Positions 17,997 to 59,320 of a DNA stretch of 64,000 bases are shown in pieces. The DNA is taken from the NCBI GenBank assembly GCA_963733095.1, contig CAVTBV010000016.1:1-64000 (forward strand), written 5' to 3'. This DNA comes from Candidatus Bathyarchaeota archaeon (GTDB lineage Archaea; Thermoproteota; Bathyarchaeia; Bathyarchaeales; Bathycorpusculaceae). The notes under the pieces were generated by a model. The model worked only from the letters and a program-made list of their open reading frames with translations. It was not told the origin of the DNA and searched no databases. A program made the position numbers and the translations under genes. Every line of letters starts with the position of its first letter. The first letter of the stretch is position 1.

Positions 17997-18648
17997 TTAA
18001 CTCGCAATATAACGATTTCCATTTCCCGAATGATGAGTTTTCACCCAGACATTCTTGTTCTTTCTAAAAATTTTAGAGAGCAGGACTTCGAAGAAAGCTT
18101 TTAGACAGATTGGAATGTTTAAGAAAAAAGTAAATATCAAAAGTGGAATAAGCCATTGCGTTCTTGTTCTTCCGTCAAGGTATAAGCCTACTCCAACCTC
18201 AAAGAAGGGCGCAAAATTGCCCACAAAGCTGTAGAGTGAAATGGGTATGGAGAGCCAGAGAACTCCTATGAGCGGTGAATTTAAAAAAATTAGAGGTAAG
18301 CCAATAAGCAGCGAAAGCAGCGCCAAGATAGGCATGAAATAGACGCCCAGAAGCATCAACCCGTCGATTTTCTCTTTTCTGTTGAGATTCTTAGTTGTTA
18401 GAACACTAAAGGAATGTTTAAAGAAGCACTGCATATGCCCCTTTGCCCACCGGTACCTTTGCCGCGAGTATGACTTCCAATTATCCACTGCTTCTTCATA
18501 GCATTCGGCGTCAACACTGTACCGAATTTTGTAGCCTGCGAAGTAAACTCGAAAGGTCAAGTCAGTGTCTTCCGGTAAAACCGATGCATCCCAACCATTC
18601 AAACTCTTAAGGATAATGCTTCTAAAACCCCCTACTGTACCTCCGAAC
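17997..18648 (-). CDS. 3' half of a split cellulose synthase-like GT2 glycosyltransferase
   Basis: Open frame FGGTVGGFR...GWD..LPEDTD...RQRYRW (ED and QxxRW motifs) plus C-terminal TMs; an in-frame TAA lies just upstream at 18651-18653. Confidence 0.9.
18636..18648. repeat. Left attachment site, direct repeat TGTACCTCCGAAC
   Basis: 12/13 identical to 58682-58694, with a 9-bp perfect core CCTCCGAAC; ACTGT/ACAGT inverted arms flank an 8-bp spacer. Confidence 0.85.
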
Positions 18649-18678
18649 AGTTAGTCTTTTTTCTCGAACTGTAGGTAG

Positions 18679-19959
18679 CTACTTTCTTTTTCTGAAGAGT
18701 TTTTTGCCGTCCATTTCGCAAACGTATTCAAAGCCAACTTCGACTAGTTTGCAGGCTTCATCTAATGAGGTCGCTACTTTAGCGGTGAATCCGTCGTTGA
18801 TTTCTTTGAAGAGGGCTATTTCGAGGTCGATGTAGATTAGGGTTGTTTTTAGGCTGTTGTGACCGAGCAGATGCATTACCCAGAGGATGTCTTTTGTTTT
18901 GTGGTACTCCATCGTTGCTTTCCAGTGGCGGAAGGTTGTGAACTTTATTTTCTTTAGGCGTGGATTGTTAAATTTTCTGGCCGCTGTTACTCTTTGCATG
19001 CCATAGTTTTTCAGCAGCGTTCGCATTTTTACGTTGAATATTTTGTCGGTGGTTTTGGGCATTGCCTCTAAGCGGCTTATCAACGAAGCTGAGACGTTTA
19101 TGATTCGGGCTTTGTGCCCCTTAACTGGGTGGTTGATTGTAACGGTTTTTTTCTCTGAGTCCACATCTATCCATTCTATTGCTTTGGCTTCTCCGGGGTC
19201 AGCGCCTGTTTCTTTTAGAGTAGCTAAGAAGGTACTGGTTCGTCTGCCTGCAGAATTAATAACTTGGTCTATTTCGCTCTCTAGTGGAACAAACGGCAGT
19301 TTTGGGTCGGGTTTGTATTTTGGCTTGTCCCATTTCTTGCCCTGCATTCTAAGTAGAGTATCGTATGCTAAAACGACGTTTTTCTTGTATCCTTCACTGC
19401 ATTTTTTGTCTGCGATTGCGAATTTTACGTCTTCTGGATTGTTTAGATCAATCCCTTGATTGAGGAGCGTCGTAATGAGTTCCGCTCTGGTGGCTATTGT
19501 TGATGGTCGAAAGCCTTGCTTTTTCATGTACAGCATAAAGTTGATGATTATTCCTTTACGCGTTTGCTGTTCTAGCAGTGGTTTTATGTCTCCCGCAACA
19601 GTTTTGATTTCTGCTGCAGATGTCAAATTTTTCGCCTCTAATGCGCATATTTGGCGAGTATAAGGTAACTTTGAGGAATTATTTATTGACCATTTATGAT
19701 TTTTTTGTAGGGGTTTTTCTGAAAATCGGTAGCCACAATCTCTGCAGAGCCACCGTTGGATAGGCTCTCTGCCTGGAGGATAGTACAAGCCATCTCTGTA
19801 GAGACGCATAGACGAACATTCAGGGCATTTGAGCTTAGGCTGTTTGGGGGGCTGGTGCAAGTGGCATGCTTCATTTTCAGCCAACTTCCCGTTTGATACT
19901 TGCTTTACGCCAAATATGCCAGAGGCATTATTTTGGAAGCCAACCTCTCCCCCAGCCAA
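18679..19959 (-). CDS. Tyrosine recombinase/integrase with N-terminal Zn ribbon
   Basis: CPEC..CRDC, KETGADPGE, FTTFRHW and LLGHNSLKTTLIY motifs; the stop is 30 bp from the left att site; start uncertain. Confidence 0.9.
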   Translation of the reverse strand: MAGGEVGFQNNASGIFGVKQVSNGKLAENEACHLHQPPKQPKLKCPECSSMRLYRDGLYYPPGREPIQRWLCRDCGYRFSEKPLQKNHKWSINNSSKLPYTRQICALEAKNLTSAAEIKTVAGDIKPLLEQQTRKGIIINFMLYMKKQGFRPSTIATRAELITTLLNQGIDLNNPEDVKFAIADKKCSEGYKKNVVLAYDTLLRMQGKKWDKPKYKPDPKLPFVPLESEIDQVINSAGRRTSTFLATLKETGADPGEAKAIEWIDVDSEKKTVTINHPVKGHKARIINVSASLISRLEAMPKTTDKIFNVKMRTLLKNYGMQRVTAARKFNNPRLKKIKFTTFRHWKATMEYHKTKDILWVMHLLGHNSLKTTLIYIDLEIALFKEINDGFTAKVATSLDEACKLVEVGFEYVCEMDGKKLFRKRK

Positions 19960-20153
19960 CCACTATCACCCTCTACTCTTCTGGGCAGAACCCGCTATCT
20001 CTACTGCCTCATAAATAGCGACATAAACACCCAACTCCGCTACAAACACCAACGCCCTAACCGTAGGATTCACCTTAGTCTTCTCACGCCTACAAGCCTC
20101 AGCCCTACCAACAGCCAACAAAGAGCCAAAATCAACTGTTTTATCGGTAGGAT

Positions 20154-21104
20154 TTATGACGATTGCTTTAAACATCCCGAGCACCTACTGCAACGAAGAT
20201 TCAATTTATCTGCGATTACTTGCTGTAATGGTTTTTTAGGAGTCTCAACGATTTCAAATCTAACTTTTCGGGAGTTGTCTTGTTCATGGACGTAAATTCT
20301 TGCAAGCTCTCCACACCACATCTTGAAAGTAATATTGAAGCCGTCGCCGCTGAACTCTTGAGAAGAATCTTTTCCATAGTGCCACATGACAACTCTCCAA
20401 ACATCAACAATAGGAATAGTTGCCTCACTTATCGTGTTATCAATAAGCCGGCCTGCATTCAATAGTTGGTTTCTTATGCCTCCTAGAAAAGCAGCCATAC
20501 TTACAAAACCGCTGGTACTTACTTCAATAGGACAGTTTCCACTTTCCAAGACAAATGAGACTGTGCCGTTAGCATGTAGAAACACTTGGGCAGATCGGTA
20601 TTTAGACCATTCAAAAAGACCAAAGAAAACATCTTTTGAGCCAACCTCAGGTTTGTAGCTACCTGTACTAACGAGAAGACCATACAGCCGTTCAGCGACA
20701 AAAGTTAACCGGACATCGTGAACTCTGCAAAGCTCCTCTGCAACCATCGAGTCCAACAAAGACAAGAAATCAATCTTGACACGTCTAAGCCCGTTACCCC
20801 CCATACGGGATAATGTCATCGGCTTTTTGATTTTAGAGATGTCAACTGATTTCAGTTTGTAGAAAGCAAACAAAGACCTGCAATATAATTCGATTATTCC
20901 GAGTTTTTTCAACCTCCAATTAATGTTTCGAGCTGTTCCCTCTGTGCGTATTCCAGCTGATTCCATTAAATCTCCTGAGCAAAAAGGTCTTGTTGGATCA
21001 AGCATTATCCATCTCAATGCTTTTAGCTCAACCGGGGACAATAATCCCTTCCAATGCTCTAACCCCTCCCAATGCTCCAAAGTGTCATTGTCACAGGTTG
21101 CCAA
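20154..21104 (-). CDS. Uncharacterised protein with N-terminal wHTH-like domain
   Basis: 316 aa with GTARN..LKKLG.IE, HDVRL and MWHYGKD; co-oriented upstream of the integrase. Confidence 0.6.
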   Translation of the reverse strand: MATCDNDTLEHWEGLEHWKGLLSPVELKALRWIMLDPTRPFCSGDLMESAGIRTEGTARNINWRLKKLGIIELYCRSLFAFYKLKSVDISKIKKPMTLSRMGGNGLRRVKIDFLSLLDSMVAEELCRVHDVRLTFVAERLYGLLVSTGSYKPEVGSKDVFFGLFEWSKYRSAQVFLHANGTVSFVLESGNCPIEVSTSGFVSMAAFLGGIRNQLLNAGRLIDNTISEATIPIVDVWRVVMWHYGKDSSQEFSGDGFNITFKMWCGELARIYVHEQDNSRKVRFEIVETPKKPLQQVIADKLNLRCSRCSGCLKQSS

Positions 21105-21297
21105 ATGCTGTCACCTTCATAATTGGTTCAAGGATTATCCTTTTTTTCTCGTCCAGTTTGATGATAAAAAGGTCAGTGTTCTCATCCCCCAATTCTCTTC
21201 TTAGTTTTCGTGGAATAACTATTACTTTTGAGCTGTCTGTGTGGTATGCTTTTGCGGTAGTTATGATTATTTCAGTCACTTTCCAATTCGCCTCCAT
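21091..21297 (-). CDS. Small AbrB/SpoVT-like DNA-binding protein
   Basis: SKVIVIPRKLRRELG...IILEPI pattern; ATG at 21297; overlaps the start of the next gene. Confidence 0.65.
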   Translation of the reverse strand: MEANWKVTEIIITTAKAYHTDSSKVIVIPRKLRRELGDENTDLFIIKLDEKKRIILEPIMKVTAFGNL

Positions 21298-21343
21298 TTT
21301 CGATAAAATACATATAGAGAAAGTACCCCTAGGGGTGTTTCGT

Positions 21344-22495
21344 TTGAGGCGACTTAATTTGGAGCAAGGTAAACCTAAAACTGGCGACCACATCGCTTTA
21401 TCGTGGAAAAAAGAAGATGGTTCTATTTGGGGTGGAACCGAAGGCTGCGTTGTAGGCGTAACGGAAGATAGCCATTCTAAGCCCTACCTGATTTTGGATA
21501 GAAGCACTTATGGCAAATCCTTAAAATCCCTTTTTTTCTCCTTAGGTCTTTTGGATTTATGGATGGTTCCAACATCAGATATAGAGTCCATTATTGACTT
21601 AAGTCAACGAGAGCGACCATCCGGTTTAAGTGAAAAAATGCACCTGAAAATTGAAATTGACTATAGAACTAACATGGACTATCAGGAGACAATAAAAAAG
21701 CTGAAAGTAAGAGGAGATTGTCATTTTGACGTAAATCAGCCAGCGCAAACAGAAAATGCTTGCAACTTTATAGTCAGAGATATAACGTCAATCAGAGAAG
21801 CGACAATAGTTTTTTCCCCTAAAGGTAATATCCAAATTCACTGTCAGCCAAAACAACTTAACGACTGCGTTAATTGGCTTGAGGAATCAGTTGTAATTCA
21901 GGAAGGTCACACGCATCTTGTTTTAGTTCCAACAAACTTCATGCTTAACATTCATGACGTTTTCAAAGAATCAGCAGACCCCACTATAGAATTAATAGAA
22001 AGACTTGCCAAAATTGAGGGAGAAACTGAACGAATTTTATTTCCCCTTGGATGGGTCGATTACTTTTTTGACGACATGGAATATAACTATCTTGAAAACC
22101 TTTTTTCAGATTCACACCCTAAAAAAGATAGAATCTTAATCCGAGGGAATAGAAACAAAGCGAATAACCAATTTGCATCCAATCCTGTGGATACCAATAT
22201 GAGAGTATGGATGAACATGGATTTTCTTGATAAGACTGCGTCAGTTGCCAAGTATATTTCTTCTGAATTTCCAACTATGCAGCTATCTGGACTTATACTG
22301 AAGCCTGAAGAGGAAAACGGTCTTAAGAATATGTGGTTTAGGTCTAGACCATATCCATTTAGCGGTCTTGACCTTGGAGGTGCGGATGGTTTCCATGGAA
22401 AGGTGCTAATCCGAAATTTACTTATCAATAGAAAAAAAGGTGCTTATACAGTAAACTTCAGAAAGTATTACGGTACAGACTTTTCCTCCCATTAG
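21344..22495 (+). CDS. Hypothetical protein
   Basis: Long open frame (20990-22495); the real start is probably near 21335-21344, divergent from the AbrB-like gene. Confidence 0.55.
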   Translation: MRRLNLEQGKPKTGDHIALSWKKEDGSIWGGTEGCVVGVTEDSHSKPYLILDRSTYGKSLKSLFFSLGLLDLWMVPTSDIESIIDLSQRERPSGLSEKMHLKIEIDYRTNMDYQETIKKLKVRGDCHFDVNQPAQTENACNFIVRDITSIREATIVFSPKGNIQIHCQPKQLNDCVNWLEESVVIQEGHTHLVLVPTNFMLNIHDVFKESADPTIELIERLAKIEGETERILFPLGWVDYFFDDMEYNYLENLFSDSHPKKDRILIRGNRNKANNQFASNPVDTNMRVWMNMDFLDKTASVAKYISSEFPTMQLSGLILKPEEENGLKNMWFRSRPYPFSGLDLGGADGFHGKVLIRNLLINRKKGAYTVNFRKYYGTDFSSH

Positions 22496-22545
22496 GTCAG
22501 CTGTTTGCTATTATTATATATATCAATAGATAATAATTTGGTTCT

Positions 22546-24070
22546 ATGCTTGATATTAAGACCTTGGAGGGCTGGCTTTGGGACGCTGCTTGCAAAATCC
22601 GCGGTCCAGTCGATGCTCCAAAATATAAAGACCACATTTTGCCGCTTATCTTCTTGAAGAGGCTCTCAGATGTTTTTGATGAAGAAATAGAAAAACTAGC
22701 TGTTCAATACGGCGACAAGGCAACTGTTGAGGAATTAGTGGAAGCAGACCACTCAATCGTATGGTTCTACATACCAAAAATCGCAAGATGGAACAGCATA
22801 ATGGAGAAAAGCACCGGCTTAGGCGAATACCTAACCGACGCCGTCCGAGCCATAGCCAAAGAGAACCCTAAACTTCAAGGCGTAGTGGACCTAAAAGACT
22901 ACAACGAAACCGCCTCCGGACAACGAACAATCAGCGATGAAAGCCTAAAAGCCCTAATAGACATACTAAACAAGCATAAACTGGGCTTAAAAGACGCTGA
23001 ACCAGATATACTAGGAAGAGCCTATGAGTATCTACTGAGAAAATTCGCTGAAGGCTCAGGTTCTTCAGCTGGTGAGTTTTATACTCCTTCAGAAGTTGCA
23101 GTCTTAATGGCTAACATCTTAGACCCAAAAGAGGGAGAGCAGGTTTATGACCCATGCCTTGGCTCAGGCAGCTTACTAATCAAAATAGCATCAAAGTTTA
23201 AAGAAAAGTACGGTGACGACGCCAAGATTAAGCCCCTGCAGTTCTTTGGTCAAGAAGTCCTCCATGGAACTTATGCCATGGCCAAGATGAATGTTTTCAT
23301 CAACAAGATGGAAGCCAACGTTGCCCTTGGAGACACCATGAACAAACCAGCTTTCCTAACGCCTGAAGGCAGCTTACAGACCTTTGACATTGTCGTTGCT
23401 AATCCCATGTGGAACCAAGACACATTCAAACAATCAACCTACGAAAACGACACCTACAACCGATTTGAAAATAGGCTATCCACCAAACAGCAGTGCAGAC
23501 TGGGGCTGGATACAGCACATGTTCAAATCCCTAAACAAGAAAGGAAGAATGGCAGTCGTACTCGACACAGGAGCAGTATCCCGCGGCTCAGGCAACGAAG
23601 GCTCAAACCGAGAACGAGACATAAGAAAAGCATTCATAGAAAACGATTATGTAGAATCTGTTATTCTAATGCCCGAAAACCTCTTCTACAACACAACTTC
23701 AGCAGGAATAATCTTAGTTCTAAACAAAGACAAGAAATACAAGAATGAAATTCTACTAATCAATAGCTCAAAGATGTTTGAGAAGGGCAGACCAAAAAAC
23801 TTCTTACCAAGCAGTTCGATTCAAAAAATTTTAAAGTTGTATGTAGATTGGAATAGCGAAGAAGGAATAAGCGCAATCCTTCAAAAACAAGAAGTAATCA
23901 AAAACGACTTCAACCTAAGTCCTTCAAGATACGTCTCTAAAAATGGACAAGACACCACTCTACCATTGGATGAAGCCATTGTTTTATTAAAAGAAGCAAT
24001 GGAAGAACAAGAGAAGGCTGATTGGGATTTAAATACTATGCTTCAAAAGATGGGGTTCAAATTAAATTGA
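22546..24070 (+). CDS. hsdM: Type I R-M methyltransferase subunit, one frameshift near 23470
   Basis: GEFYTP, YDPCLGSG and NPMW in frame 1; ADWGWIQH...NLSPSRY continues in another frame. Confidence 0.9.
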
Positions 24071-25357
24071 CTGAACTTCAATCAACTTTTGAGGACTATG
24101 TACAAACTGACTTCGGGTTTTTGCCAAGGGACTGGGCGATTGTAAAATTAGCCGATGTTTTAGAAGAAGTCGATTTGAGGTTAAGCAATAGTTCCTTTGA
24201 AAACTTGCCTGTTCTTTCATTAACAAAAAATCATGGATTGATTCTTCAAAGTGAGCGATTCATTCATAGAATTGCCACTAAAGTTGTCAGCAGGTACAAG
24301 GTTATCACGGAAGGTCAAATCGTTTACAATCCTTATGTAATTTGGGAAGGGGCAATAAATGCTCTGAAGAATTTTGAAGCTGGAATAGTTAGTCCTGTTT
24401 ATGCAATATGGAAAGTAAAACCAGAATGTGATTGGCGATATGTTGACAACTTATTAAGAACTGGATACATGCTGAATGAATATAGTAAATATTCAAGTGG
24501 CGCTGTTGTTAGGAGAAGATCAATTAAAAAAAACCTCTTTTTGAATATTCAAATTCCTCTTCCACCTATTCAAGAACAAAAGAAAATCGCTAATATATTA
24601 TCAACAATTGAAGCTGCATTAGGTAAATCAAATAATTCTTTATCGTCCATGAAAGAACTTAAAAAATCGTTAATGAGGCATATTTTCAATTACGGTTTAG
24701 TCAGTTTGGAAGATGCAAACAAAATTCAGTTGAAAGAAACAGAAATTGGGCAAATGCCAAAGGGATGGAATATTGCAAACCTGATTGAAATAACAAAAAA
24801 AACTCAACAGAAAGATATGCGCAAAGCAGATTATGAATTTAAGTACATAGACGTTTCAGGAATAAACAAGAATCTAAATAAAATTGCTGCTTTTTCAATT
24901 TTCAAAGGAAAAACATCCCCTAGCAGAGCAAGAAAAGTTATAGAAACAAACGACGTTATAATTGCTACGGTTAGACCAACTTTGAGAAGAGTCGCGGTTG
25001 TTACAGAGGATTATAATTCTCAAGTTTGTTCAACTGCTTTTTGTGTGCTTAGGGCAAAAGAAACCTGTAAACTCAAAGTATTTGTTTTATGCAATTCAAA
25101 GAGATAGTTTCATTGATGAGTTGGGTAAACAGCAAAGAGGGGTTAACTATCCGGCTGTATTGGATTCTGATGTTAAGAAGCAGAAAATCCCTCTTCCTTC
25201 CGTCACTGAACAGATCGAAATGGCATCAATTCTTGACATTGTGGATTCTAAAATTAACTCGGAGTATTTACATAAAAAAAGTCTTGAAGAGTTATTTAAT
25301 TCAACTCTATCAGAACTCATGAGTGCAAAAATCCTGGCTAACAATTTGGAGATTTAA
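24067..25357 (+). CDS. hsdS: Type I R-M specificity subunit, one frameshift near 25060
   Basis: Two TRDs, each followed by a conserved IPLPP..EQ / IPLPS..EQ region. Confidence 0.88.
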
Positions 25358-25359
25358 AG

Positions 25360-28272: not shown

Positions 28273-28274
28273 TT

Positions 28275-28601
28275 ATGGTTTCAGCAAGCGAATTTAAAAA
28301 AGAAGTTTCAAGCTGGGCGCAAACGTTAAACGTTACTCCGAAAGAAGTGCACCTGAGAGATATTAGCAATAAATGGGCGAGTTGTTCAAGCAAAGGGAGA
28401 CTGACATTTTCCTATACGTTGCTGAATGAAAATGCGGAAATAAGGTCAAAAGTTATAGTGCATGAGCTTCTTCACTTGAAATATCCTAATCATGGGAAGA
28501 TGTTCAAAACTTTATATAACTCATACTTAAAAAAAGCGGGAATTGTATCCTCAATTAACGATATTACCGTCGCAGAAACCGTGCTAAAACCCAAATCATG
28601 A
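28275..28601 (+). CDS. YgjP/M48-like metallohydrolase (DUF45)
   Basis: KWASCS and VHELLHL..PNH motifs; a typical hsdR neighbour. Confidence 0.85.
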   Translation: MVSASEFKKEVSSWAQTLNVTPKEVHLRDISNKWASCSSKGRLTFSYTLLNENAEIRSKVIVHELLHLKYPNHGKMFKTLYNSYLKKAGIVSSINDITVAETVLKPKS

Positions 28602-29492
28602 CGCTTTCAAAGACCCTGATTCGTATTCTTTAAAATTTACTTGATTTAATTTATTTGAAACCAATGCTGCTCCGTAAACGTTTTCACAGAAAATCTTTGC
28701 ATGTTTTAAAAGAAATGGAAATCTCTTAATGAGGGGTTTATCTCTTGTATATTGCCCCATGTTCCAGTAATCTTTAGAATTTATTGGTGGATATCGTGTT
28801 GATGTCTCGTGCCACATTGTTAGCATCGAAAGACCATAGGCGCGTGGAGACGAACGTAAAATGCAAAATTGATAATCGCCCCTAATATCTCCGCTGAACG
28901 CTTTGCCAACTCCTTTTATTACTCTCATTGAAAACAAGAAACCAATTTTATCAAAAGGAACCTTTTCGAGTGTCTTAAGCGAAGTCTTAACATAAGAGTT
29001 TCTTTTGTCTAAATTCAGAGTTGCTTGCCACATTTCAGCCTCATTTAACTTGTAAATTTTATCGTTGTCAGTTTTTAACTTTTCAGCTGAAGGCACCAAA
29101 GGAGCAAGTTTCTTCAAAATTAAATCAAATCCAAAACTCCTAAGTTTTTCAACTGCGGGGTCGTTTGATGCATTTAACCAATTTATACTTTCAGCCAATT
29201 GTCCGTTGAAAGATTCCATTCCAAGCAGAAGAGCATAAACTGAACGGTGACTAATTGATTTAACCTCATTAACTTTTAAAATTCCTAACATCAAACCAAA
29301 AGCCTTGGCAGACTTCTCTACCGATTGTTGCATAGCATATACTGCCTAGGCGTACAGGTTTTCTTTATAAAGAACTTTGGCAGCGGCAAAATCTTTCTTT
29401 GCTATAATGGCAAAATTGAGAGCGGTCTTCGCTGGAATAGACTTTGGGATGGGCAAAAAACCGTCTTGCTCTTTTTCTTTATGCAGTCCCAT
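28596..29492 (-). pseudogene. HEPN domain protein with an in-frame TAG
   Basis: Reads AKKDFAAAKVLYKENLYA*AVYAMQQSVEKSAKA, with HETSTRYP later; TAG at 29346-29348. Confidence 0.7.
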
Positions 29493-29509
29493 GCCATCAC
29501 TTTGTCTTT

Positions 29510-30428: not shown

Positions 30429-30534
30429 ACTAAGTAAGTGGACTCTGTTTGTTTAAAAAACTTGGCACTTTATTTTTGAAGAAACTAAAAGCATAAAACT
30501 TCATTTCTTAATATTCAACTCAGAGCCGGGTCTA

Positions 30535-30999: not shown

Positions 31000-31068
31000 A
31001 TTTACACTGAAATAGACGCACCAAAATACGTTATCCAGAGCAAACAACTAAGAAAGAGTACACAAAAA

Positions 31069-31963: not shown

Positions 31964-32215
31964 CTGGGATAGCATCCTCTTCTAAATAATAAGAACTCTG
32001 GAACAGGCATAAGCTACTTTTCGAATTTTCCGCCGCGCATGGGGCATTCTCGCTTTATTGTATCTGGAATCGTTGGAAGTTGTTTTGTGTGGCAGAAACA
32101 GAGTGAATCTATTCGTAAAAGTAACAAAGTCTTTGTTTAGTTTAGATCCTTATTTGAAATTAACAGGATTTATTTACAAAAAGATTCCAATAGAAGCACG
32201 TGAGAAATGATGAAA

Positions 32216-43940: not shown

Positions 43941-43945
43941 TAACC

Positions 43946-44938: not shown

Positions 44939-45089
44939 GCTATACTATACTCTCCTAAGTTTGCTCCAACACCAGCGGAGAAAAGACAACAAAGTGAGTT
45001 ACTCTCAAGACACCGCAAAACAAGACAACGGTTGTTAGTATATTTGTTTAAGCAAATAAAATTTGCTATCAAACCTCATAGATGAGGAA

Positions 45090-45198: not shown

Positions 45199-45260
45199 TT
45201 GTTTCTCCAATGCATTAAATGACTAAAAAAGGGGAAAAGTGGTTTTGGATATTATCGAAT

Positions 45261-47984: not shown

Positions 47985-48169
47985 TTTGTTTTTCCTTTTC
48001 CTTTAATTTTGGTCAAGAAGTTCATTTCATTTAATTTAGGTTAAAAAGAATAAAAATGGACTTCTTGCCAATTTTCTAATGTCTACTTTCATTTAAATAA
48101 CTTTGCATTTTACATTTCACGCTAAAACACTGTACAAAACTATGGATTTTTCTTCGCTTAATCAACTTT

Positions 48170-48335
48170 CAATTTATCCAAAGATCAAACCCTATCCAGC
48201 GGCAAAACCTCAATACTTAAGGCGAGAAAAGTCTCTTTGGAGAACTGGGGTTTGCTGAGGCTCTTTGGGCAAGAAGTTTTTAGGAGAGAAGAATCCAGGT
48301 TTAACTGGTAACAAAAGCCTTCTCAGCCCCCAACT
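48170..48335 (-). repeat. Structured intergenic repeat, copy 3, with conserved flank
   Basis: Highly similar to 51105-51282. Confidence 0.75.
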
Positions 48336-48397
48336 TTTTCTCTATTGATTTTAAATGACTAAAAAAGGGGAAAGATAGTTTTTGGATATTGTCGAAT

Positions 48398-50920: not shown

Positions 50921-51104
50921 TTTGTTTTTCCTTTTCCTTTAATTTAGGTCAAGAAGTTCCGTTCCTTAAATTATCGTAAAAAGTATGGAAATACTTCTTG
51001 CCGATTCCTTTTTGTCTACTTCTTATTTAAAAAACTTTGCAGTTTCCCTCGGAAATATCTACAAAATTGTTTTGGGCTGTTCTTTCTCCTAAACAGTTTT
51101 TAAT

Positions 51105-51282
51105 TTATCCAAAGAACCAACCCTATCCAACAGCAACTCTCAATACTTTAAGGCGAGAGAAGTCTCTTTGAGAAAGAGGGTTTGCTGAGGCTCTTTGGGC
51201 AAGGTTCTTTAGGAGAGAAGAACGCAAATGCAAATGCGTACCCCAAGTTGACCATTGAATAGAGCCTTCTCAGCCCCCAACT
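51105..51282 (-). repeat. Structured intergenic repeat, copy 4, with conserved flank
   Basis: Minus strand GCTGA-GAA-GGCTCT...AGAGCC-TCAGC stem. Confidence 0.75.
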
Positions 51283-51338
51283 TTGCCAATGAATTAAGAG
51301 ACTAAAAAAGGGGAAAGATTGTTTTTAGTTTAGCCTTT

Positions 51339-54161
51339 TTATGGTCGTTTTCTTAGCGTTAGGATTGTTACGGCAAAACCGATAGCTATAGCAACTATTA
51401 TCGCAACTGCTGCTATACCAATGTACATTTCTGTAGGTGGCAAACTTGTCTCTGGATAGGGTGACGCCGTTGCTTGGGCTTCTTGCACATTCAAATTAGT
51501 CTCTGCGTTTGAAGGCCAGTAACCGTTGGTACCAGAGAATGTGGCTGTGACAGCGTAATCGCCTGGAACGTTTGGAATCGTCCAAGTATAATGGAATATG
51601 CCGTTTGCATCGGATGTCGCGTCGCCAATGTGGATATAATTATCATTCGGGTCAATAGCATCGATTGAGACTGGAACGCCAACAAAGTCTGTTGGAAGTG
51701 GTCTTTGCTGGTAAACATGTTCCATCCAGTCAGTCATGCTCGCGTCAGACGCAACTGGAACTCCATTCGGAAAGTCTGCTGCTTGCGCCGTCTGTGTTGT
51801 ACCAGTTGAAACATCCATCACTGAACCTTGTATCACTACGTTATTTCCTGCAGTAATGCCATTTTGTGGTGCTTGGACTGTAGTGGAGCTGGGTCCTCTG
51901 CCAGTAGTGTAGATTTGCATGTCGTAGCCATTAAGGAATGTTGTAAAGCCATCTGCCAAAGCAGGAGTAGACATACTACCGTAACAAGAGAGCGTCCATA
52001 TTTCTTCACCTGTGGTGGCGTTAAGAGCAACTACTCGTGCGCCCTTGTAAATCGGGTCAGTAACAGTGTGCTCATTAGACATCAGGTATACTATTCCGTT
52101 ACCACTAATAGGTCCAACGTACATCGGATACTCACCGTAGGGAGAAGATAAGCTACTTGTACTGTTGCCTTCTCCACCGTTGCCGTATGTCCACAGTAGA
52201 TTTCCGTTCGTATTGTCGTAACAGTAGCATATACCGCCCATCCCGTCAAAGTAAGAGTTGCCATAAGCTAATGCTCCAGGTATGCCGTATCCACTTTCAT
52301 AGTATGCCAATCCAACCATCGGTTCAGTTGGACCCCATATCTGTTCGCCTGTTTCTAGACTGAAACCGACCTTGGTACGGGTTTCACGATAGCCTTCAAC
52401 GAAAGTGCGTGTTTGCCAATCAACTCCGTGAATAGTGACGGAGCTGTTGCCTGCTGGTGGGTCATAGTTCCGACTCCATAGTATCGAACCGACCGCACCC
52501 TTAGATTCGTTTAGGTTGACAAGATACAGTGTGTAGGGAGCTTGTCCGGTACCTGTTCCTCTCGACGACAGACCAGAAGGCAATAAACCGTTTCTGCAAA
52601 GTATAGCATCATTAAAGTTAGCGGCAACGACAGTAGGCGAACCGGATATAGTGTTTGCCCAAGGTACCGAAATGTTCCAATCATAAGTTGTTTGTGCGCC
52701 AAGGTTGGTCGGGTATATGGTAGTAGAGTTCATAGGTATGTTTCCGTTGACTGTGATTGATGAGCCGTATGGGACTGTGATTGTTACTCCAGCGGTGCCG
52801 GGCGTTTTTGGTGGGAGTGTTGCTGTGGTTCCAGCATAAGGAATGGGAACTCCTGAAGATGAAACGAGGGCTCCATTGCTTGCGTTTACCAATGACGGTG
52901 ATAGACTACCGCCCATAGTATATGGATTTACATCGTATTGCCATAGATGCGATGAGTTCCACTGAGCCATATACCATTGTGGATTTGAAGAGGTGCCTGC
53001 GTTAGCAAAGACATACCTTAACTGTTCACCATTTGGACCTGGTACTGCTGTACCTGAAGGAACGCCTGTTACGTTGAACAATTCCTTTCCTGTCCATGCA
53101 TCGAAGGCTTGTGCAAAGTTGGTTGTGAACAGTATTGGTTGGAAAGCTCCATGTTGTTCGCCGTTCCAAAGGTTATATGTGTAAGCAAATGATATTGCAG
53201 GTATAGTATCCGAAGACCAAACAACTTCTCCTGTCCGCAGGTCAACGCAGTAAAGCGGTCCAGCACTGGCCCCTGTAAAGCCTACTACGCCTTTATAGTA
53301 CATGTAGCCGTCTACTATTATCACATTGTTGAATCTTCCAAGGTAGCAAGAGCCCTCAAAGTAGGCAGTTCCCGGAACTTCAGTATACTGGTCTCCTCCG
53401 ACAACTCCACCTGCTGAAAGTGGCTTTGTCCACATGATATGAGCAGTCAGAGATCCTACGGAGTCACCGTGGTACACTGCAGAGCTAGTATAGCCGCTTA
53501 CGGGTGGCATACCTGAACCTAGCCAGTCCGATGATATTATCCACCAGTCAGTGCCTTCACCGTAGATTGGGCGTGTCCAGTAATCAGATGGCAGCGGAGT
53601 GCTACTTTCTGCGCTAGGAATTGGTTGTTCCTGCACAGTAAGCGTTGTTACTGCAGAGCTGGGCAGATAAGTGTCGTTGACTGCTTCTGATTCAGCGTAA
53701 TGTTCGTATTGAGCATAGTCTTGCCCGGGGAAAGTAAAGTTAAAACTATACGTGCCAATCTGGGCAGGAGTGTAGGTAAATGCTTGATTCGATGTTGTGT
53801 CCATGATAACATCAAAAGTCTTTTTTTCTGTTGTACCGTCAGGTGCAGTAATGGTACACTGGTAGTTGTGGAATCTGTAGTTGTTTGATGTCAATGCTGC
53901 GCTAGATGTGTAACCAGTCGTTCCAACAATAGCGTTAGTTCCTCCGACTGCCCCAAAAATAGGAAGAACCCACATGTAAACTGTAACAGATTGACCGACA
54001 CCTATAGGGTCAGGAGCTATAAATATGGTGGCATCCGTTGGAATCTGCCACGCAGGTGTATGCGTACTAGCCATGGGTATAAGCATCATTGAAGCTGATA
54101 TTGAAAGCATCAAGAGTATAGAAATCGCAATAGCTGCTGTTTTATTTTTCAGTATTTTCAT
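51339..54161 (-). CDS. PQQ-like beta-propeller surface protein
   Basis: Intact 940 aa with the same architecture. Confidence 0.88.
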   Translation of the reverse strand: MKILKNKTAAIAISILLMLSISASMMLIPMASTHTPAWQIPTDATIFIAPDPIGVGQSVTVYMWVLPIFGAVGGTNAIVGTTGYTSSAALTSNNYRFHNYQCTITAPDGTTEKKTFDVIMDTTSNQAFTYTPAQIGTYSFNFTFPGQDYAQYEHYAESEAVNDTYLPSSAVTTLTVQEQPIPSAESSTPLPSDYWTRPIYGEGTDWWIISSDWLGSGMPPVSGYTSSAVYHGDSVGSLTAHIMWTKPLSAGGVVGGDQYTEVPGTAYFEGSCYLGRFNNVIIVDGYMYYKGVVGFTGASAGPLYCVDLRTGEVVWSSDTIPAISFAYTYNLWNGEQHGAFQPILFTTNFAQAFDAWTGKELFNVTGVPSGTAVPGPNGEQLRYVFANAGTSSNPQWYMAQWNSSHLWQYDVNPYTMGGSLSPSLVNASNGALVSSSGVPIPYAGTTATLPPKTPGTAGVTITVPYGSSITVNGNIPMNSTTIYPTNLGAQTTYDWNISVPWANTISGSPTVVAANFNDAILCRNGLLPSGLSSRGTGTGQAPYTLYLVNLNESKGAVGSILWSRNYDPPAGNSSVTIHGVDWQTRTFVEGYRETRTKVGFSLETGEQIWGPTEPMVGLAYYESGYGIPGALAYGNSYFDGMGGICYCYDNTNGNLLWTYGNGGEGNSTSSLSSPYGEYPMYVGPISGNGIVYLMSNEHTVTDPIYKGARVVALNATTGEEIWTLSCYGSMSTPALADGFTTFLNGYDMQIYTTGRGPSSTTVQAPQNGITAGNNVVIQGSVMDVSTGTTQTAQAADFPNGVPVASDASMTDWMEHVYQQRPLPTDFVGVPVSIDAIDPNDNYIHIGDATSDANGIFHYTWTIPNVPGDYAVTATFSGTNGYWPSNAETNLNVQEAQATASPYPETSLPPTEMYIGIAAVAIIVAIAIGFAVTILTLRKRP

Positions 54162-54331
54162 TTTTTTTTCTTTCCTTTATATTTGTACCTTCCTAATTCT
54201 GCAAATGACGCTATTAAGACCCACGGACCTATGGTTCACACACGTAAATGCACTTTTGCTTTTATGATTGGTTCAAGCGCCAGAAGATTAATTAAATTAG
54301 AGATTATCAAATCGTAACTGAACCAATACGT

Positions 54332-55006
54332 ATGTACAACCAAATACTACAAATCGCAGTAGAAATCATATCAGCGGTAGCTTGCTTTATTCTACTAAAA
54401 TTTATGATTAAACCATATACAGTAACACGTGAAGGTCGTTATATCGGATTACCGCTCGGATTTGGTTTTCTCGGCGCCTCTTACGCTCTGTCGGCAATAG
54501 CATACGCCCAGCCTAATTTTGGTGAAAGCCACTTAAAGTGGATTCAGCTTCTTTTCAGGGCATTTTCGTTTATATTCCTTGCAGTTGCCTATTATTTCTC
54601 GAAAAAACCATCCAAGAACACACGTTTAATTTGGGATATTACATTCAGCGGACTTTTTGTGGGCTTAGCAGCCTTACTTCTTTTAGTCTTTATCGCCCCA
54701 CAGGTACCACTAAGCAGTTACAAAACCATAAATGTTTTTGTTCGAGTCATAAACATAATTTGCCTTTCATACATTTCCATTTACTGCACCAGAGAACATA
54801 CAAAAGACCCTGACCCAATATTAATATGGGTACTGGGTGGTTACGCTTTCCTTGGACTAAGCCAGTTTTCATATCTAATTTTCAATATTTATTCAGTAGG
54901 TTTTACATTTTGGGGATCTTTAGCGCTTCGTTTAATCAGCCTTGCTATTTTTCTTGTTGCCACATATCGAACCTTTCATATGCAAGAAAAGGGCAATAAA
55001 AGATGA
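54332..55006 (+). CDS. Polytopic (about 7-TM) membrane protein
   Basis: Seven hydrophobic segments; overlaps the downstream wHTH start by 4 bp. Confidence 0.7.
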   Translation: MYNQILQIAVEIISAVACFILLKFMIKPYTVTREGRYIGLPLGFGFLGASYALSAIAYAQPNFGESHLKWIQLLFRAFSFIFLAVAYYFSKKPSKNTRLIWDITFSGLFVGLAALLLLVFIAPQVPLSSYKTINVFVRVINIICLSYISIYCTREHTKDPDPILIWVLGGYAFLGLSQFSYLIFNIYSVGFTFWGSLALRLISLAIFLVATYRTFHMQEKGNKR

Positions 55007-55281
55007 AGAAGATCCAAAGAAGAGATAAAATGAAAATCTATGGAGATCTTCTATTGATACTTAGTGCTGAATCGGCTAATAGAAAAATAGTCATTACACA
55101 TATCCAGATGAAGATTAATGTTCCATTTACTCGTTTGAAAAAATACATTTCAGATCTGAAGGAGTTAGGTCTAATTGAAGACGAGACATCGCTTAAGGTT
55201 ACTGAGAAAGGTAAATTGTATTTAGACGAGTATAAGACTGTTTTAGCTTTTATGAAGCGCATGGGCATGAGCTATAAATAG
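55003..55281 (+). CDS. Winged-helix regulator (HTH_45-like)
   Basis: RRDKMKIYGDLL...THIQ..NVPF.RL..Y..L..LGLI..VTEKG. Confidence 0.8.
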   Translation: MKKIQRRDKMKIYGDLLLILSAESANRKIVITHIQMKINVPFTRLKKYISDLKELGLIEDETSLKVTEKGKLYLDEYKTVLAFMKRMGMSYK

Positions 55282-55448
55282 GGTCTCAAGATAGGTTTAG
55301 ATTCAGATTTTTTCTGGGTTTGGTGAGGCTCTGGAGAGTTTCAAAAAGGTGCAAATGTGTACCTCTATATTCACTCATAACCAAAACTTGAGCATACCAC
55401 ATTTTTTAATTAAAAAAAGAAGAGAGATTTGTTTTTATATTATCGAGT

Positions 55449-58115
55449 TTATGGTCGCTTTCGCAGCATAAGCATTGCCAATATAAGGCCAATTATTGCG
55501 ACGAATACGAACAGCCCTATGATGGCGGGAATAAAGTATTGATCAGCCATAGATTGCGCTGGTTGTGTGGGTTGTGGAGTAGCTGCTGGGGCATCTTCAA
55601 TATTTACGGCTGTTTCTGCTGATGAACCGAAATACGATTCTGATCCTGCGAATCTAGCTATTATTGTGTATTTGCCTGAGACCTCTGGTGTGAAAGCTAA
55701 GCTATAGAGGCCTGATGCGTCACTTGTTGTTGTTCCGACTTCGTGGTAGTTGTTGTTTGGATCAAGCACTTCGATTATAACTTGAACACCTGTTGCATTT
55801 GTTGGCTGTGGTTGTTGCATGTAAAGGTATTCCATCCACGCTGACATGCTATCGTCAGATATAGCTGGTGTACCCTTAGCTGGGATTCCCAGACTAGTTT
55901 GCCCTGGAGATTGGTCGGTAACAGTGCCCTTCACAAGTATCTTTGTGCCCAGTACTTGAGTTGTTTCAGGTGCAGTTACTGTAGTGGCAGATAGTCCCTT
56001 TCCGTAACAGTAAAGCTGATTGTCATATGCATCTGGCATTAGCAAGTAGCCGTCTGCTAGGGCGCAGTTGGGTTGGTTTGTGATAACAAAGCTAGGCATA
56101 TCCCATATGAGTTCCCCTGTTGTGGCGTTTAAGCAGTATAGTTTGGAATTTTTGTATAGCGGTGGACTGTATACGTGGCCTCCTTGGGCGTAGATCTTTC
56201 CATCGGCTGCAACGGCTAGGTTGTAGAGAGGATACTCGCCGTATGGTGTTTCCAAACCGGCGTTTCCAGTGTAGAAGGTCCATAGTTTAGCTCCTGTTGT
56301 TGCGTTTATAGCGTACACGTATCCACCTAAATCAGTCATATAGACGGCGCCATAAGCGGCAATGTAGCTCTGACTGTAGTAACCATATATGTCATTGGGA
56401 TTCTCGATTGTTATCGGACCCCATACCAGTTGTCCTGTTTTGAGGCTAAAGGCTCTCCATGCCATCGTTTCCATATTGTATTCATAGTAGAATCCGTCTC
56501 CTGCAGCAGCCGCCACTGAAAGTCTGCACCATGGCGTTTCCTCCCGCCATATCGGACCCCAAAGTAGCGATCCATCTATTGCACTGTAGCCTGCTTGATA
56601 CACGTAACCCGGATTCCACGAGTAGGCGCTTACTTCTGGTGTGCTCGTCATAAGTAGTACATCGCTTGCGATTTTTGTAATAGATAGAGTTGGGCTGATT
56701 GCTATGCTTGTTCCATTGGGTGCAGTAATCGAGGTGACTAAAGGTTGTGACCACTGTATTCCTAAGTTCCAGTCAATACTTGCACCTTGTGGAGGAGCCC
56801 AGACCCAAGAATTAACGCTTCGTCCTGATGAATAGCTGTATTTCATGATTGCTAATGTTGAGTTCCACATGTTCAGAGTGCGAGTTGTGCCGTTAACGTA
56901 GTAGCCTATCAGGTTGCCGCGGTCGTCTGAAACAAGCGATGGAATTAGAGCGATTGGCACTCTAAGATCTGAACTTATTACAGCCTGCGATGTGGGTGCG
57001 TTGACGATATTCAATATCCAGTTACCTGTCATTGCGTCGTACATCTCCCATGTATTGTTGAACTGGTAAGCTCCTGATGTTGTACCCATATATGGTGATG
57101 GTGGTAAAGCCCATAGGTATGGTATGCCTCCGTACTGGTTAGGATTTATGACATTCACTATTTGGCCTGTCCTTAGCACTGAGGTAGTGTTCTTAGTCCA
57201 TACTTCTTGTCCGGTGCGCAAGTCTAATGCAACCCAGCCCGCTGGGTTTGCTGTGCTGCCTGGAATCAGATTGTAATAGACTATTCCGTTTATGATTATT
57301 CCACCCCATTTGGGTTGGTACATATTGTTTGAATTGTAGTTGCTTCCGTATTGGGTGCCGCCAAAGTCTCCTCCCATTATGCCACCAAAGGAATATGGTT
57401 TTGTCCAAAGTATGTGACCGCTGTTTGGTGCGGTGGTATATGGATTGAAGTTTGCAGTTAGATTATAATAGCCTCCTCCTGCTGCTCCGCCTCCTGATCC
57501 TAGAGTATACCCAAGCCAGTTTCCAGCGATCTTGTACCAGTCAAGATTCGTTGATATTATTGGACGTTGCCAGTAACCGGTTGGAAGTGGCGTGTTCGGC
57601 GAAACCGTAATTGCCTCTTGCTGTACAGTGAGAGTCATTTTTGGGCTAGTGCTGGCTTCAAAATAATCACCAACAAAGATTGCGTTATAGGTGCCTATGA
57701 GTGGGCTCGGGTTGGAACCTGCTACAGTTTCTCCTGGAAAGTTAAACACGAAAGTGTAGTTGCCGAGTTGAGTCGGCGTATACGTAGTTGCTGCACCTCC
57801 TGCGGCGTCGGATGCGAATGGCCCCAATGTTTCGGTTTTTCCGTCGGGCGTAGTAACTGTAACAACAAAATTATGCCATCGGTCACCGTATTCTTGATAT
57901 GCTGTTGGAGGTAATTTGTCAAGCCAAAAGCCAATGTATGCGGTTTGGCCAACGCCAACGGGATTAGGCATGACGCTGAGATAAGCGTAAGTCGGGACGG
58001 TTGCAGCGGGAGTATGTGCATTAGAAGTTGGCACTAAATCCATTGAGGCTCCCATAGAAATTGTTAGAATTGCTGCGATCAAAATAGCCATAGTTGTTCC
58101 TTTAAAATTTTTCAT
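55449..58115 (-). CDS. PQQ-like beta-propeller surface protein
   Basis: Intact; ATG at 58115 follows AGGAG; TM + RKRP terminus. Confidence 0.88.
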   Translation of the reverse strand: MKNFKGTTMAILIAAILTISMGASMDLVPTSNAHTPAATVPTYAYLSVMPNPVGVGQTAYIGFWLDKLPPTAYQEYGDRWHNFVVTVTTPDGKTETLGPFASDAAGGAATTYTPTQLGNYTFVFNFPGETVAGSNPSPLIGTYNAIFVGDYFEASTSPKMTLTVQQEAITVSPNTPLPTGYWQRPIISTNLDWYKIAGNWLGYTLGSGGGAAGGGYYNLTANFNPYTTAPNSGHILWTKPYSFGGIMGGDFGGTQYGSNYNSNNMYQPKWGGIIINGIVYYNLIPGSTANPAGWVALDLRTGQEVWTKNTTSVLRTGQIVNVINPNQYGGIPYLWALPPSPYMGTTSGAYQFNNTWEMYDAMTGNWILNIVNAPTSQAVISSDLRVPIALIPSLVSDDRGNLIGYYVNGTTRTLNMWNSTLAIMKYSYSSGRSVNSWVWAPPQGASIDWNLGIQWSQPLVTSITAPNGTSIAISPTLSITKIASDVLLMTSTPEVSAYSWNPGYVYQAGYSAIDGSLLWGPIWREETPWCRLSVAAAAGDGFYYEYNMETMAWRAFSLKTGQLVWGPITIENPNDIYGYYSQSYIAAYGAVYMTDLGGYVYAINATTGAKLWTFYTGNAGLETPYGEYPLYNLAVAADGKIYAQGGHVYSPPLYKNSKLYCLNATTGELIWDMPSFVITNQPNCALADGYLLMPDAYDNQLYCYGKGLSATTVTAPETTQVLGTKILVKGTVTDQSPGQTSLGIPAKGTPAISDDSMSAWMEYLYMQQPQPTNATGVQVIIEVLDPNNNYHEVGTTTSDASGLYSLAFTPEVSGKYTIIARFAGSESYFGSSAETAVNIEDAPAATPQPTQPAQSMADQYFIPAIIGLFVFVAIIGLILAMLMLRKRP

Positions 58116-58627
58116 CTTTCTTTTTCTCCTTAATTTTAATTGACCCAACAAATTGTTTTGAAATTTGTTTTAGTCAACATTATTGACTGTGTATGGATTT
58201 AGTTTATAAAACTGTGTGGCAAGTAGGTACTTACCATATAAAGTAACAATCAATTTTTTTGATACTAAAAAATTCTGAGGGTTTTCTGGGTCGAAACCTA
58301 AAATTGTGTTAGAATATTGGAGTGATTTCGTTGCTCTTTTGATGTCTGAATTATCCAACTTGCTGCAAATATGAATCAAATTCGTTGTCTACCAAGAGCT
58401 TCAATACATAGATTTATCAAATGAACACTTCCTGATGGTTAAGTGGCGATGCTTTTCCTTGGCACCTATTAAAATAAGACCCAAAAACACGAAAATTTGG
58501 TTGTCGATGTCGAAAACCCACTGTTAAGCCAAATAAAGCTGCGACCTTCCTTAACATTCTAGAAAAAGGAGGATACAGTAAATAGGGTCTTCGGGAGTAG
58601 CGTTTCCTTTCGGTATCGGTATATCAC

Positions 58628-59320
58628 TCAGAGATTGAAAAGAAAAAAGGGATTTTGCGGGAGACATCGCCACTCGGGGTATGTTCCTCCGAACTGAGCA
58701 ATTAACCCCAAATTGTTCCGGGCTTCCTGGTCAACGCGGTACCCACCAATTCTCTCCAAGGCCACCAACCGAGTGATGATGTTTTGGGGCTCATTTAAGA
58801 CAACGACTCTTCCCTGCACTGCCCCAACCAGTGGGTCAACGAACTCTTTGACGAGTGTCTCAACGATGTCTCTTTGAGGGTAATAGTCTGCATCAAAACA
58901 GAGCACTATTTCTCCTGTGCATTTGCTGAATCCGTGGTTCATAGCTGAGGCTTTTCCTCTTCTGCCGTTACTTCTATCACGGTTCAGGACTTCTATGTAT
59001 GGATATTTGGTTTTGAATTCTTCTGCAATTTGGCCTGTTTGGTCACTTGAAGCATCGTTGATTACTATTACTTGCAGTTTTTCTTTTGGGTAGGTAAGAG
59101 TTGTTATTCGTGAAAGTAATCGTCCCAAGACTTTTTCTTCATTGAACGCTGGGATGAGGATTGAAATGGTGGGTTCAAAGTTCGAATCTGCTTGGGTAGG
59201 CGACTTTGGTTTGTTTGCTGACCTCAACACAGAGAACGTAAAAATGTAGTGTCTCACAAGGTAAGCTATCATAACTGCTGTTAAGAAAAGAAAAAGGATT
59301 TCTAATGCTTCAAGGATCAA
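58628..59320 (-). CDS. 5' half of the split GT2 glycosyltransferase
   Basis: IPAFNEE, INDAS.D, GKASAMN, FDAD and AVQG motifs; after QFGGT it runs 17 codons into element DNA and stops. Confidence 0.9.
   Translation of the reverse strand: MILEALEILFLFLTAVMIAYLVRHYIFTFSVLRSANKPKSPTQADSNFEPTISILIPAFNEEKVLGRLLSRITTLTYPKEKLQVIVINDASSDQTGQIAEEFKTKYPYIEVLNRDRSNGRRGKASAMNHGFSKCTGEIVLCFDADYYPQRDIVETLVKEFVDPLVGAVQGRVVVLNEPQNIITRLVALERIGGYRVDQEARNNLGLIAQFGGTYPEWRCLPQNPFFLFNL
58682..58694. repeat. Right attachment site, direct repeat TGTTCCTCCGAAC
   Basis: Matches 18636-18648 and lies exactly where GT2-like sequence ends (QFGGT). Confidence 0.85.

Follow-up and report, generated by a model that had tools for sequence, protein, structure and literature searches.

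A glycosyltransferase gene split by a 40-kb insert

In a stretch of 64,000 nucleotides from Candidatus Bathyarchaeota (GCA_963733095.1, contig CAVTBV010000016.1, positions 1 to 64,000; the whole stretch is referred to as the window), the gene of a membrane family 2 glycosyltransferase (GT2) is cut at the codons QFGGT by an insert of 40,046 bp, as was read directly from the sequence. The best explanation, to which we assign a probability of about 0.75, is that these 40 kb belong, as an integrated mobile element, to a lineage of Bathyarchaeia elements or viruses and that they entered by ordinary site-specific integration, which is reversible in principle. The DNA encoding the conserved QFGGT motif of this PgaC/IcaA-like membrane glycosyltransferase (GT) would then be the chromosomal attachment site (attB) used by the integrase of the element. 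The genome is a metagenome-assembled one of 16 contigs and the sole genome of its species among those compared; at least 120 species genomes represent the genus.

The 5' half of the gene (58682..59320, minus strand) comprises residues 1-213, starts with TTG at 59320 and ends on the codons CAG TTC GGA GGA ACA at 58696-58682. Its translation contains the D and DAD motifs followed by the conserved ...GLIAQFGGT, is colinear with the orthologs and matches Glycos_transf_2 (PF00535, 2.9e-28) in a Pfam search. Past ACA at 58682, the frame continues through 17 foreign codons to a stop, giving an open reading frame (ORF) of 230 aa (58628-59320). The 3' half (17997..18650, minus strand) opens at 18650, right behind a TAA, with CTG TTC GGA GGT ACA GTA GGG and has no start codon of its own at the cut; it reads FGGTVGGFR..., continues through ED, QRYRW and a hydrophobic tail to the natural stop at 17997, and matches Glyco_trans_2_3 (PF13632, 4.9e-13). 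Residue 213 of 425 marks the cut, which separates the half with DxD from the half with ED and QxxRW.

The D, DxD, ED and QxxRW motifs of a processive membrane GT2 are all present, together with hydrophobic stretches at the N- and C-terminal ends (membrane segments judged by eye). The best NCBIfam match of an intact ortholog was TIGR03937 PgaC_IcaA (9.5e-41), and the best solved structure was the archaeal membrane GT2 6yv7 (2.5e-21), with further matches to NodC and to cellulose synthase/BcsA. We thus predict a membrane synthase-type GT2 that is PgaC/IcaA-like, with a family match (140 bits) well under the equivalog cut-off of 422. Insertion would strip the catalytic half with ED and QxxRW from the enzyme and so leave it inactive.

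Two small genes on the minus strand flank the split gene. The upstream one (59317..59742) encodes a 141-aa membrane protein, its stop overlapping the GT start by 4 nt, and has an ortholog upstream of the GT gene at locus L141; the downstream one (17778..17975) encodes a 65-aa membrane protein, starts 19 nt past the GT stop and is conserved behind the GT gene at loci L132 and L234. Precise excision of the insert is predicted to rebuild a 425-aa in-frame gene and, with it, the three-gene arrangement; excision by the integrase, if it still happens, would restore the GT gene exactly. An initial annotation, made from the sequence alone, had proposed as much. Its description of a GT2 gene split at QFGGT by an integrase element of 40,046 bp, with a core shared in one codon phase, was confirmed by our direct reading, as were the absence of a stop or frameshift from both halves, the open integrase ORF (426 aa) and, given the small genes on either side, the rebuilding of the three-gene arrangement.

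Attachment sites and ends of the element

A 13-bp direct repeat, its copies differing at one position, marks the limits of the insert; both copies lie on the minus strand in equal codon phase at a spacing of 40,046 bp. The attachment (att) core at the end of the 5' half, attL, is GTTCGGAGGAACA (58682..58694), and that at the beginning of the 3' half, attR, is GTTCGGAGGTACA (18636..18648). A search of the window for GTTCGGAGG[A/T]ACA gave exactly two copies, where 0.08 are expected by chance and 0 of 100 shuffles contained two or more, and the whole 2.84-Mb assembly likewise contains only two. Integrase-mediated crossover would have taken place inside GTTCGGAGG, and the single mismatch would then reflect a difference between attB and the attachment site of the element (attP) outside the crossover. 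The integrated body occupies 18649..58681 (40,046 bp counting one core copy), as delimited by empty sites in relatives and by gene content. No tRNA gene was found in the 64-kb window.

The two ends of the element differ in the way expected of att sites. Between the integrase stop and the attR core lies a P arm (18649..18678, minus strand) with an imperfect upstream copy of the core (CAGTTCGAG), and this arrangement aligns in five relatives, the metagenome loci L130-L133 and a virus contig (L209), all of which are described below. The opposite end, the P' arm (58600..58681, minus strand), carries, some 20 nt from the core, an imperfect GGCGATGTCTCC palindrome with the motif TCTCCCGCAAAATCCCTTTTTT behind it (58643-58664), and aligns with the sequence behind the core in the attP of the virus contig. 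Its more general form, TC[T/A]CCCGCAAAA..CCCTTTTTT behind a GGAGA..TCTCC palindrome, is seen at 58643-58664 (minus strand) of the window and at loci L219-L233. With one mismatch allowed, the motif was found at 34 sites in 25 of the 120 genus genomes, and a reversed control gave 0 sites; in IMG/VR, its sole match was the virus contig already in hand. In four of the fetched loci, it stood a few bases from tRNA 3'-end fragments (GGGATTTGAACCC), as judged by eye. Because the motif occurs in 25 genomes of the genus, beside tRNA fragments as well, and on the virus contig, we read it as an end mark that the members of this element family carry irrespective of their target, probably a common arm site or a terminator at their far end.

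Empty sites in related genomes

Intact orthologs with empty sites were found in related genomes. In 28 of 28 intact orthologs examined, the matches of the N-terminal and C-terminal halves met at these four codons, read as FGGT or YGGT, with no change of frame, so that the 425-aa product of a crossover, which the initial annotation had expected to align with full-length homologs, is colinear with them across the cut. Among the intact orthologs, L074 comes closest, with 80% identity to the 5' half and 84% to the 3' half, and it and the other closest orthologs (G016, G019 and others) have empty sites. In the loci that were read, a cytidylate-kinase-like gene and a radical-SAM gene bracket the operon as they do in the window. 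The segment thus carries an integrase and short direct repeats and has an empty site in relatives, the features by which archaeal integrated mobile genetic elements (iMGEs) are recognised.

The ortholog was present in 60 of the 120 genus genomes (counted at a best E value of 1e-85 or less), the others having a paralog of 30-35% identity or nothing. Frameshifts or stops were seen in the ortholog of at least seven genomes (G002, G004, G053, G106, G109, G051 and G059), some of which may be assembly errors, and the ortholog of G095 is split between contigs at residues 113-126. In G002 (L047/L003, G002:C9, about 79480), one base is missing within the FGGT codons (TTTGGGGGACTG) and a second frameshift follows further on. 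We considered this 1-nt deletion as an excision scar and rejected it, since it falls in a run of G and is accompanied by the second frameshift, and an assembly error is equally likely. Judged from these sequences, the GT gene looks dispensable, and its loss is evidently tolerated because the ortholog is missing or broken in many genomes of the genus.

The integrase and its active site

The element encodes, at 18679..19959 on the minus strand, a tyrosine-recombinase-type integrase of 426 aa with an N-terminal zinc ribbon. The open ORF matches PF00589 (9.2e-11, residues 235-379), the archaeal XerA family NF040815 XerA_Arch (8.4e-19) and the solved XerA 4a8e (3.9e-08). The gene lies at the end of the element beside the att repeat, its stop 30 nt from the attR core, and relatives show the same layout.

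The catalytic tetrad of tyrosine recombinases is R...HxxR...Y (PMC8371274). The integrase of the window departs from it at two places, with Asp254 for the first Arg and Thr341 for the His of HxxR, and keeps the second Arg (R344), a later His (H367) and the Tyr (Y376). Asp254 and Thr341 stood opposite Arg and His both in our own alignment and in the HMMER alignment to the solved XerA. In an alignment of 106 rows, the first catalytic Arg was replaced by Asp in 10 of 10 rows of one clade (GADPGE), whereas Arg was found in all 96 other rows (GxRxGE). With L021 left out, eight of the remaining nine clade rows showed Thr at the position where HxxR has its His, and the ninth had Arg, against His in 85 of the 96 other rows, and the surroundings of the catalytic Lys differed in these nine rows by Val for Glu and His for Ser (PEKGS to PVKGH). 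Asp in place of the first Arg was further seen in 16 of the best 150 cluster representatives from a search of 1.84 billion proteins. Members with this exchange are the window integrase, L129-L133, L141, L143, L021, L209, L234, L235, L244, P0001 and others. On sequence grounds, the enzyme is a tyrosine-recombinase-type integrase with a non-canonical active site, the change belonging to the clade and not being a private defect.

These substitutions would fit a dead end, in which the element is stuck because its integrase is inactive or an excision factor has been lost, and the GT gene, permanently inactivated, will decay. Decay of the cargo genes and the non-canonical active site speak for this explanation, as does an ortholog that occurs in only 60 of 120 genus genomes and is frameshifted in several, so that loss appears to be tolerated. 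We nevertheless regard a dead end as quite improbable. No disabling change was found in the integrase, in either core or in either half, and the Asp and Thr residues extend through the clade (10 of 106 rows, 16 of the best 150 cluster representatives), which accounts for many independent junctions. Since the whole clade carries the change, is diverse and has made many independent junctions, the replacements are unlikely to mean inactivity. A dead end moreover overlaps with the preferred explanation of an integrated mobile element, which leaves present mobility open.

Two further observations concern integrases of the genus. The best match within the genus by identity (53%), in G045, was considered as a GT-targeting relative and ruled out, there being no adjoining GT gene and the integrase belonging to a different clade. 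This integrase (L048, G045:C14, 6221-7498, minus strand) resembles that of the window visibly much more closely, by eye, in its first ~120 residues, the zinc ribbon, than in its catalytic part; it sits between PQQ-family genes, with a TTAGTTAG-rich stretch behind it, and belongs to another clade. Such a pattern points to an exchange of domains among integrases.

The same gene is hit elsewhere

The junction in the window has counterparts in other data sets. In four loci from JGI metagenomes (L130, L131, L132 and L133), an integrase 48-53% identical to that of the window is followed by 31-42 nt, the core and a GT gene from the F of FGGT onward. The GT parts are 55-60% identical to the half in the window and open to the contig limits, and that of L132 reaches its natural stop and a small downstream gene. 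A fifth junction at the same FGGT codons was found at L234 in a genome of another genus (G470), where an integrase of 81% identity adjoins a GT half of 62% identity; the N-terminal half of the GT gene was not found in G470, which is 87% complete. The integrase is far more alike across genera than is the host gene (81% versus 62%), which indicates that the element module moved horizontally.

Other positions of the gene were occupied as well. At L129 (same clade, about 4480), the integrase is joined to the GT gene about 22 codons upstream, at ERIGGY; at L141 (same clade), the junction is at about residue 65 in the opposite orientation, the GT gene lying on the minus strand downstream of the integrase and the upstream membrane gene being present; and at L184, whose integrase belongs to another clade and has the canonical residues, the junction is at about residue 250, at a contig end. 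The cores at these three positions all hold a (T/A)TCG(G/A/T) stretch. Among the other GT 3' halves that stand beside an integrase at the FGGT site or nearby, 6 of 6 were open to the contig limits. We read the GT gene as a tolerated and perhaps favoured knockout target, as different integrases have hit it at four positions. One may conjecture that loss of the GT brings a benefit by removing a surface polysaccharide that serves as receptor or barrier.

Contigs also break at the FGGT codons in three more genomes (G022, G070 and L067). Both contig ends in G022 carry the same 14 nt, the G070 contig starts on the F codon and overlaps another contig by 55 nt, and the L067 contig ends one base before the end of the core. 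Such breaks, which were seen in the contigs alone, are what an assembler yields where occupied and empty sites coexist, and would be explained in that way here; no contig of a core-bearing element was found in G022 or G070.

An integrase tree was computed from the 106 rows with IQ-TREE in quick mode, rows being dropped only if their match was shorter than 330 residues. The window integrase grouped with L130, L131, L129, L209, L132 and L133 (SH-aLRT 90) inside the 10-row clade (97). Its sister clades stand beside tRNA genes: 40 of the rows outside it have one (Cys, Ala, Leu, Ser, Val, Gly, Pro, His and others) at a distance of 150 nt or less. These tRNA-targeting integrases of Bathyarchaeia share with that of the window the architecture, a distance of ~30-60 nt from stop to target and the P' end motif; they differ from the window clade, with its Asp and Thr and its GT target, in having the canonical Arg and mostly the canonical His and in landing in tRNA genes.

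The independent junctions also bear on the possibility of an assembly artefact, that is, a chimeric join that placed the element between the halves of an intact gene. The sequence does come from a metagenome-assembled genome in 16 contigs. Both junctions have a real att layout, however, with a P arm on one side and the P' motif on the other, and the junction of integrase and GT gene was assembled independently in six other data sets. We consider an artefact very improbable.

A virus contig with an uncut attP

A free form of this att system exists on L209/G136, a linear IMG/VR contig of 26,457 bp (72% complete by CheckV). Its integrase nests among the GT-joined integrases in the 106-row tree, and behind it come a P arm and the core, which is uncut (TTTGGCGGAAC); the P' arm next to the core aligns with the attL side of the window. 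With a large terminase (4.4e-36) and a portal protein (5.2e-38) encoded as well, L209 is a tailed-virus contig carrying an uncut attP.

Empty sites in relatives, diverged elements at the same site, the free attP and an integrase shared across genera together argue for a horizontally mobile family with a dedicated attB, and therefore against an element tamed by its host. The initial annotation had suggested comparing intact with split orthologs in related genomes and asking whether different elements use the same FGGT site; intact orthologs are present in relatives, and diverged elements with different cargo share the site.

Cargo of the element

The left part of the element contains type I restriction-modification genes on the plus strand (22546..28272): a frameshifted hsdM (22546-24070), hsdS (24022-25107) and hsdR (25360-28272). 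A candidate defence gene on the minus strand (29625..30428; PADLOC PDC-S18, DUF5655; 3.4e-113) stands beside them, so that this part of the element is a small defence island. The element also encodes a RadA-like ATPase.

A broken gene for a secreted PQQ-repeat protein (38053..40295, plus strand) has two 1-nt deletions, both outside homopolymers, relative to an intact paralog of 824 aa on contig C13 that is 97.5% identical over 3 kb. The similarity covers positions 37701-40670 of the window and C13:484600-487571, within a chromosomal cluster of PQQ genes (470-495 kb), and 41 of the 74 differences between the two copies fall in the last 300 bases. This stretch of 97.5% identity points to a recent duplication or gene conversion between cargo and chromosome. 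Fragments of an ABC-ATPase/acetyltransferase-like gene (phrog_11143) lie at 42352..43412 (minus strand), and four large genes for secreted proteins with PQQ propellers and Ig domains (729, 840, 940 and 900 aa) occupy 45795..58151 (minus strand). The latter belong to a multigene family that is spread over the genome; the element holds five or six such large proteins in total, and large secreted proteins of PQQ type have been noted for Bathy-6 genomes in parts of an earlier report (PMC11697101). The statement in the initial annotation that many cargo genes are broken held for three, namely hsdM, the PQQ-repeat gene and the ABC-ATPase/acetyltransferase-like gene.

Virion genes (terminase, portal, capsid) were not detected when 20 element ORFs were compared with PHROGs and 20 with Pfam, a search that short or decayed remnants may escape. 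The element thus lacks the marks of a tailed-virus provirus, whereas the related virus contig has terminase and portal, and in this genome it is a decayed cargo island and not a recognisable provirus. Pfam, PHROGs, PADLOC and NCBIfam gave no name for the ORFs at 20154-21104, 20990-22495, 28596-29333, 31069-31764 and 54332-55006, and that at 20990-22495 (501 aa) had no usable match in the ESM Atlas and none on the virus contig.

State of the two halves and excision

To judge the state of the GT halves, we used counts of invariant columns and of relative rates, because the closest intact ortholog is 80-84% identical in protein and synonymous sites were judged saturated; these counts have low power if the insertion is recent. 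Of 114 columns invariant in all other sequences, three differed in the window (V52I, I65L and L36F), each by a conservative exchange; the corresponding numbers for the other sequences were 0-4. Changes specific to one lineage, counted relative to L074, were balanced (for example, 14 versus 12 and 10 versus 10). The halves accordingly show no excess change as far as these sequences go, which fits a maintained gene and a recent insertion alike. Disabling indels in the cargo amount to ~1 per 1.2 kb in the one gene that could be dated, and at this rate none would be expected in 1.28 kb with P of about 0.37. The contrast between intact halves and broken cargo is therefore weak, as it arises readily by chance and the cargo may have broken before its arrival.

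Public runs that hold the region comprise five DNA contig sets from three studies, one with 0.52 of the sampled words and the others with 0.10 or less, and no RNA. Compared with positions 8700-28600 of the window, the contig sets X1-X4 consist of short pieces at a depth of 2-5; among the pieces listed, none spans 18636-18648 and none has a loose end at the core. A loose end at 18936 in X1, X3 and X4 lies within the integrase gene and resembles other family members.

The initial annotation proposed that the element is a switch used by the host: it would be kept as an intervening sequence, and its regulated excision, either irreversible as in skin, SPbeta and nifD or reversible as in comK, would turn on synthesis of a surface glycan in some cells. 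Several features are as such a switch would have them. Precise restoration of the gene is possible in silico; at least three cargo genes are broken, yet neither the integrase nor either att site is damaged; the GT halves show no excess change and the six other integrase-side 3' halves are all open; and virion genes were not detected, as expected of a tamed remnant. The argument from intactness has little power, however, a recent insertion explaining it equally well, and no junction was seen in the thin contig sets X1-X4. The site is empty in the closest relatives and serves elements of unrelated cargo, among them a tailed virus with a free attP, and the likeness of the integrase across genera, which exceeds that of the host gene, indicates horizontal mobility and not vertical retention. 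No function for the replication or maintenance that a reversible episome needs was identified in the element, and these archaea are not known to have a terminally differentiating cell type. A host-used switch thus appears improbable, and the analogy drawn with skin, SPbeta and nifD found no support in view of the relatives' empty sites, the diverged elements at the site and the free viral attP.

Discussion

In Bacillus subtilis (skin in sigK, SPbeta in spsM) and in Anabaena (nifD), genes are interrupted in frame by an element and put together again by site-specific recombination between short repeats. These elements are kept vertically and excised on a developmental cue in a terminal cell, and spsM is a surface-polysaccharide gene. 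The window resembles these systems in its interrupted ORF and in the restoration, here in silico, by recombination at repeats; it departs from them in that the sites of its relatives are empty, the family moves between genera and a viral attP is free. There is also a likeness to the comK prophage of Listeria, with its active lysogeny, and to the Staphylococcus aureus phages in hlb and geh, with their negative lysogenic conversion. Their attB is located within a gene whose function is lost on integration and regained on excision, and excision has been proven experimentally. With these bacterial cases, the window shares an attB inside a gene and a temperate element, whereas its host is an uncultured archaeon and excision is possible in principle.

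Elements in protein-coding genes of archaea have been described, and the cases cited in the pertinent parts of two papers lie 3'-distally and keep the gene open (PMC6563490; PMC8371274). According to passages of the latter, a review, none of these archaeal protein-gene sites has been tested for recombination. Krupovic et al. 2019 (PMC6563490) report that 14 of 68 iMGEs of Thaumarchaeota lie in protein genes and that unrelated elements in some cases share an orthologous target gene. As described there, those iMGEs resemble the element in the window in that a tyrosine-type integrase stands beside a short att repeat (13 bp in the worked example) and that they are recognised via empty sites; they differ in being 3'-distal with the frame reconstituted (PMC6563490), whereas the gene in the window is cut in its middle, at residue 213 of 425, and broken. 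The case of the window moreover involves an entire clade of integrases with one gene as target, at several positions. The case works like the bacterial gene-breaking attB sites, and by its enzyme family and its host it belongs with the archaeal protein-gene elements. The initial annotation knew of no archaeal case, which does not hold for elements in protein genes as such; for a recurrent target that is hit mid-gene and broken, no precedent was found in our literature searches. Nor did we find a description of an attB in an archaeal GT gene or of an integrase clade without the first Arg, although the supplementary tables of PMC6563490 (Table S2), PMC11705971 and PMC11697101 may list such targets.

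Several points weigh against the explanation that we prefer. No read or contig with an empty site or a circle was found for this strain, the public holders of the region being thin contig sets. The integrase is without two canonical catalytic residues, and its activity is argued from the repeated integrations of the clade. We sought adjacency to the GT gene alone; 43 of the 106 classified integrase loci bear the label 'other', besides 17 that run to the end of a contig, so that a 'hot spot' is named without comparison to other genes. The element in the window and the virus contig L209 share the integrase and one broken ABC-ATPase/acetyltransferase-like gene only, and the element itself may be a decayed provirus or an element of another kind. 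That the GT product is a virus receptor is conjecture.

On the explanation of an integrated mobile element, the findings provide a concrete and conserved protein-coding attB in Bathyarchaeia, which are abundant and almost uncultured, accompanied by a viral attP that matches it and by a family of junctions. Through the match of attB and attP, a virus contig is tied to its host lineage with no need of CRISPR spacers. The search for archaeal integration sites usually concentrates on tRNA genes, and one provirus pipeline takes them as boundary marker (PMC11705971); elements in protein genes such as the one described here would escape such pipelines. If biochemically confirmed, a recombinase clade that works without the first catalytic Arg would revise a supposed invariant of the family.

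The findings also lead to the testable idea that lysogeny in Bathyarchaeia alters the cell surface by breaking a synthase gene. A more far-reaching proposal, which we hold tentatively and consider unlikely, is that a lineage of archaeal viruses and elements whose recombinase has a remodelled active site (Asp for the first Arg, Thr for the His of HxxR) has specialised in knocking out a surface-polysaccharide synthase and restoring it on excision, so that the surface glycan, and with it the susceptibility to infection, would be switched on and off at the level of the population. If true, this would be for archaea what negative lysogenic conversion or active lysogeny is for bacteria.

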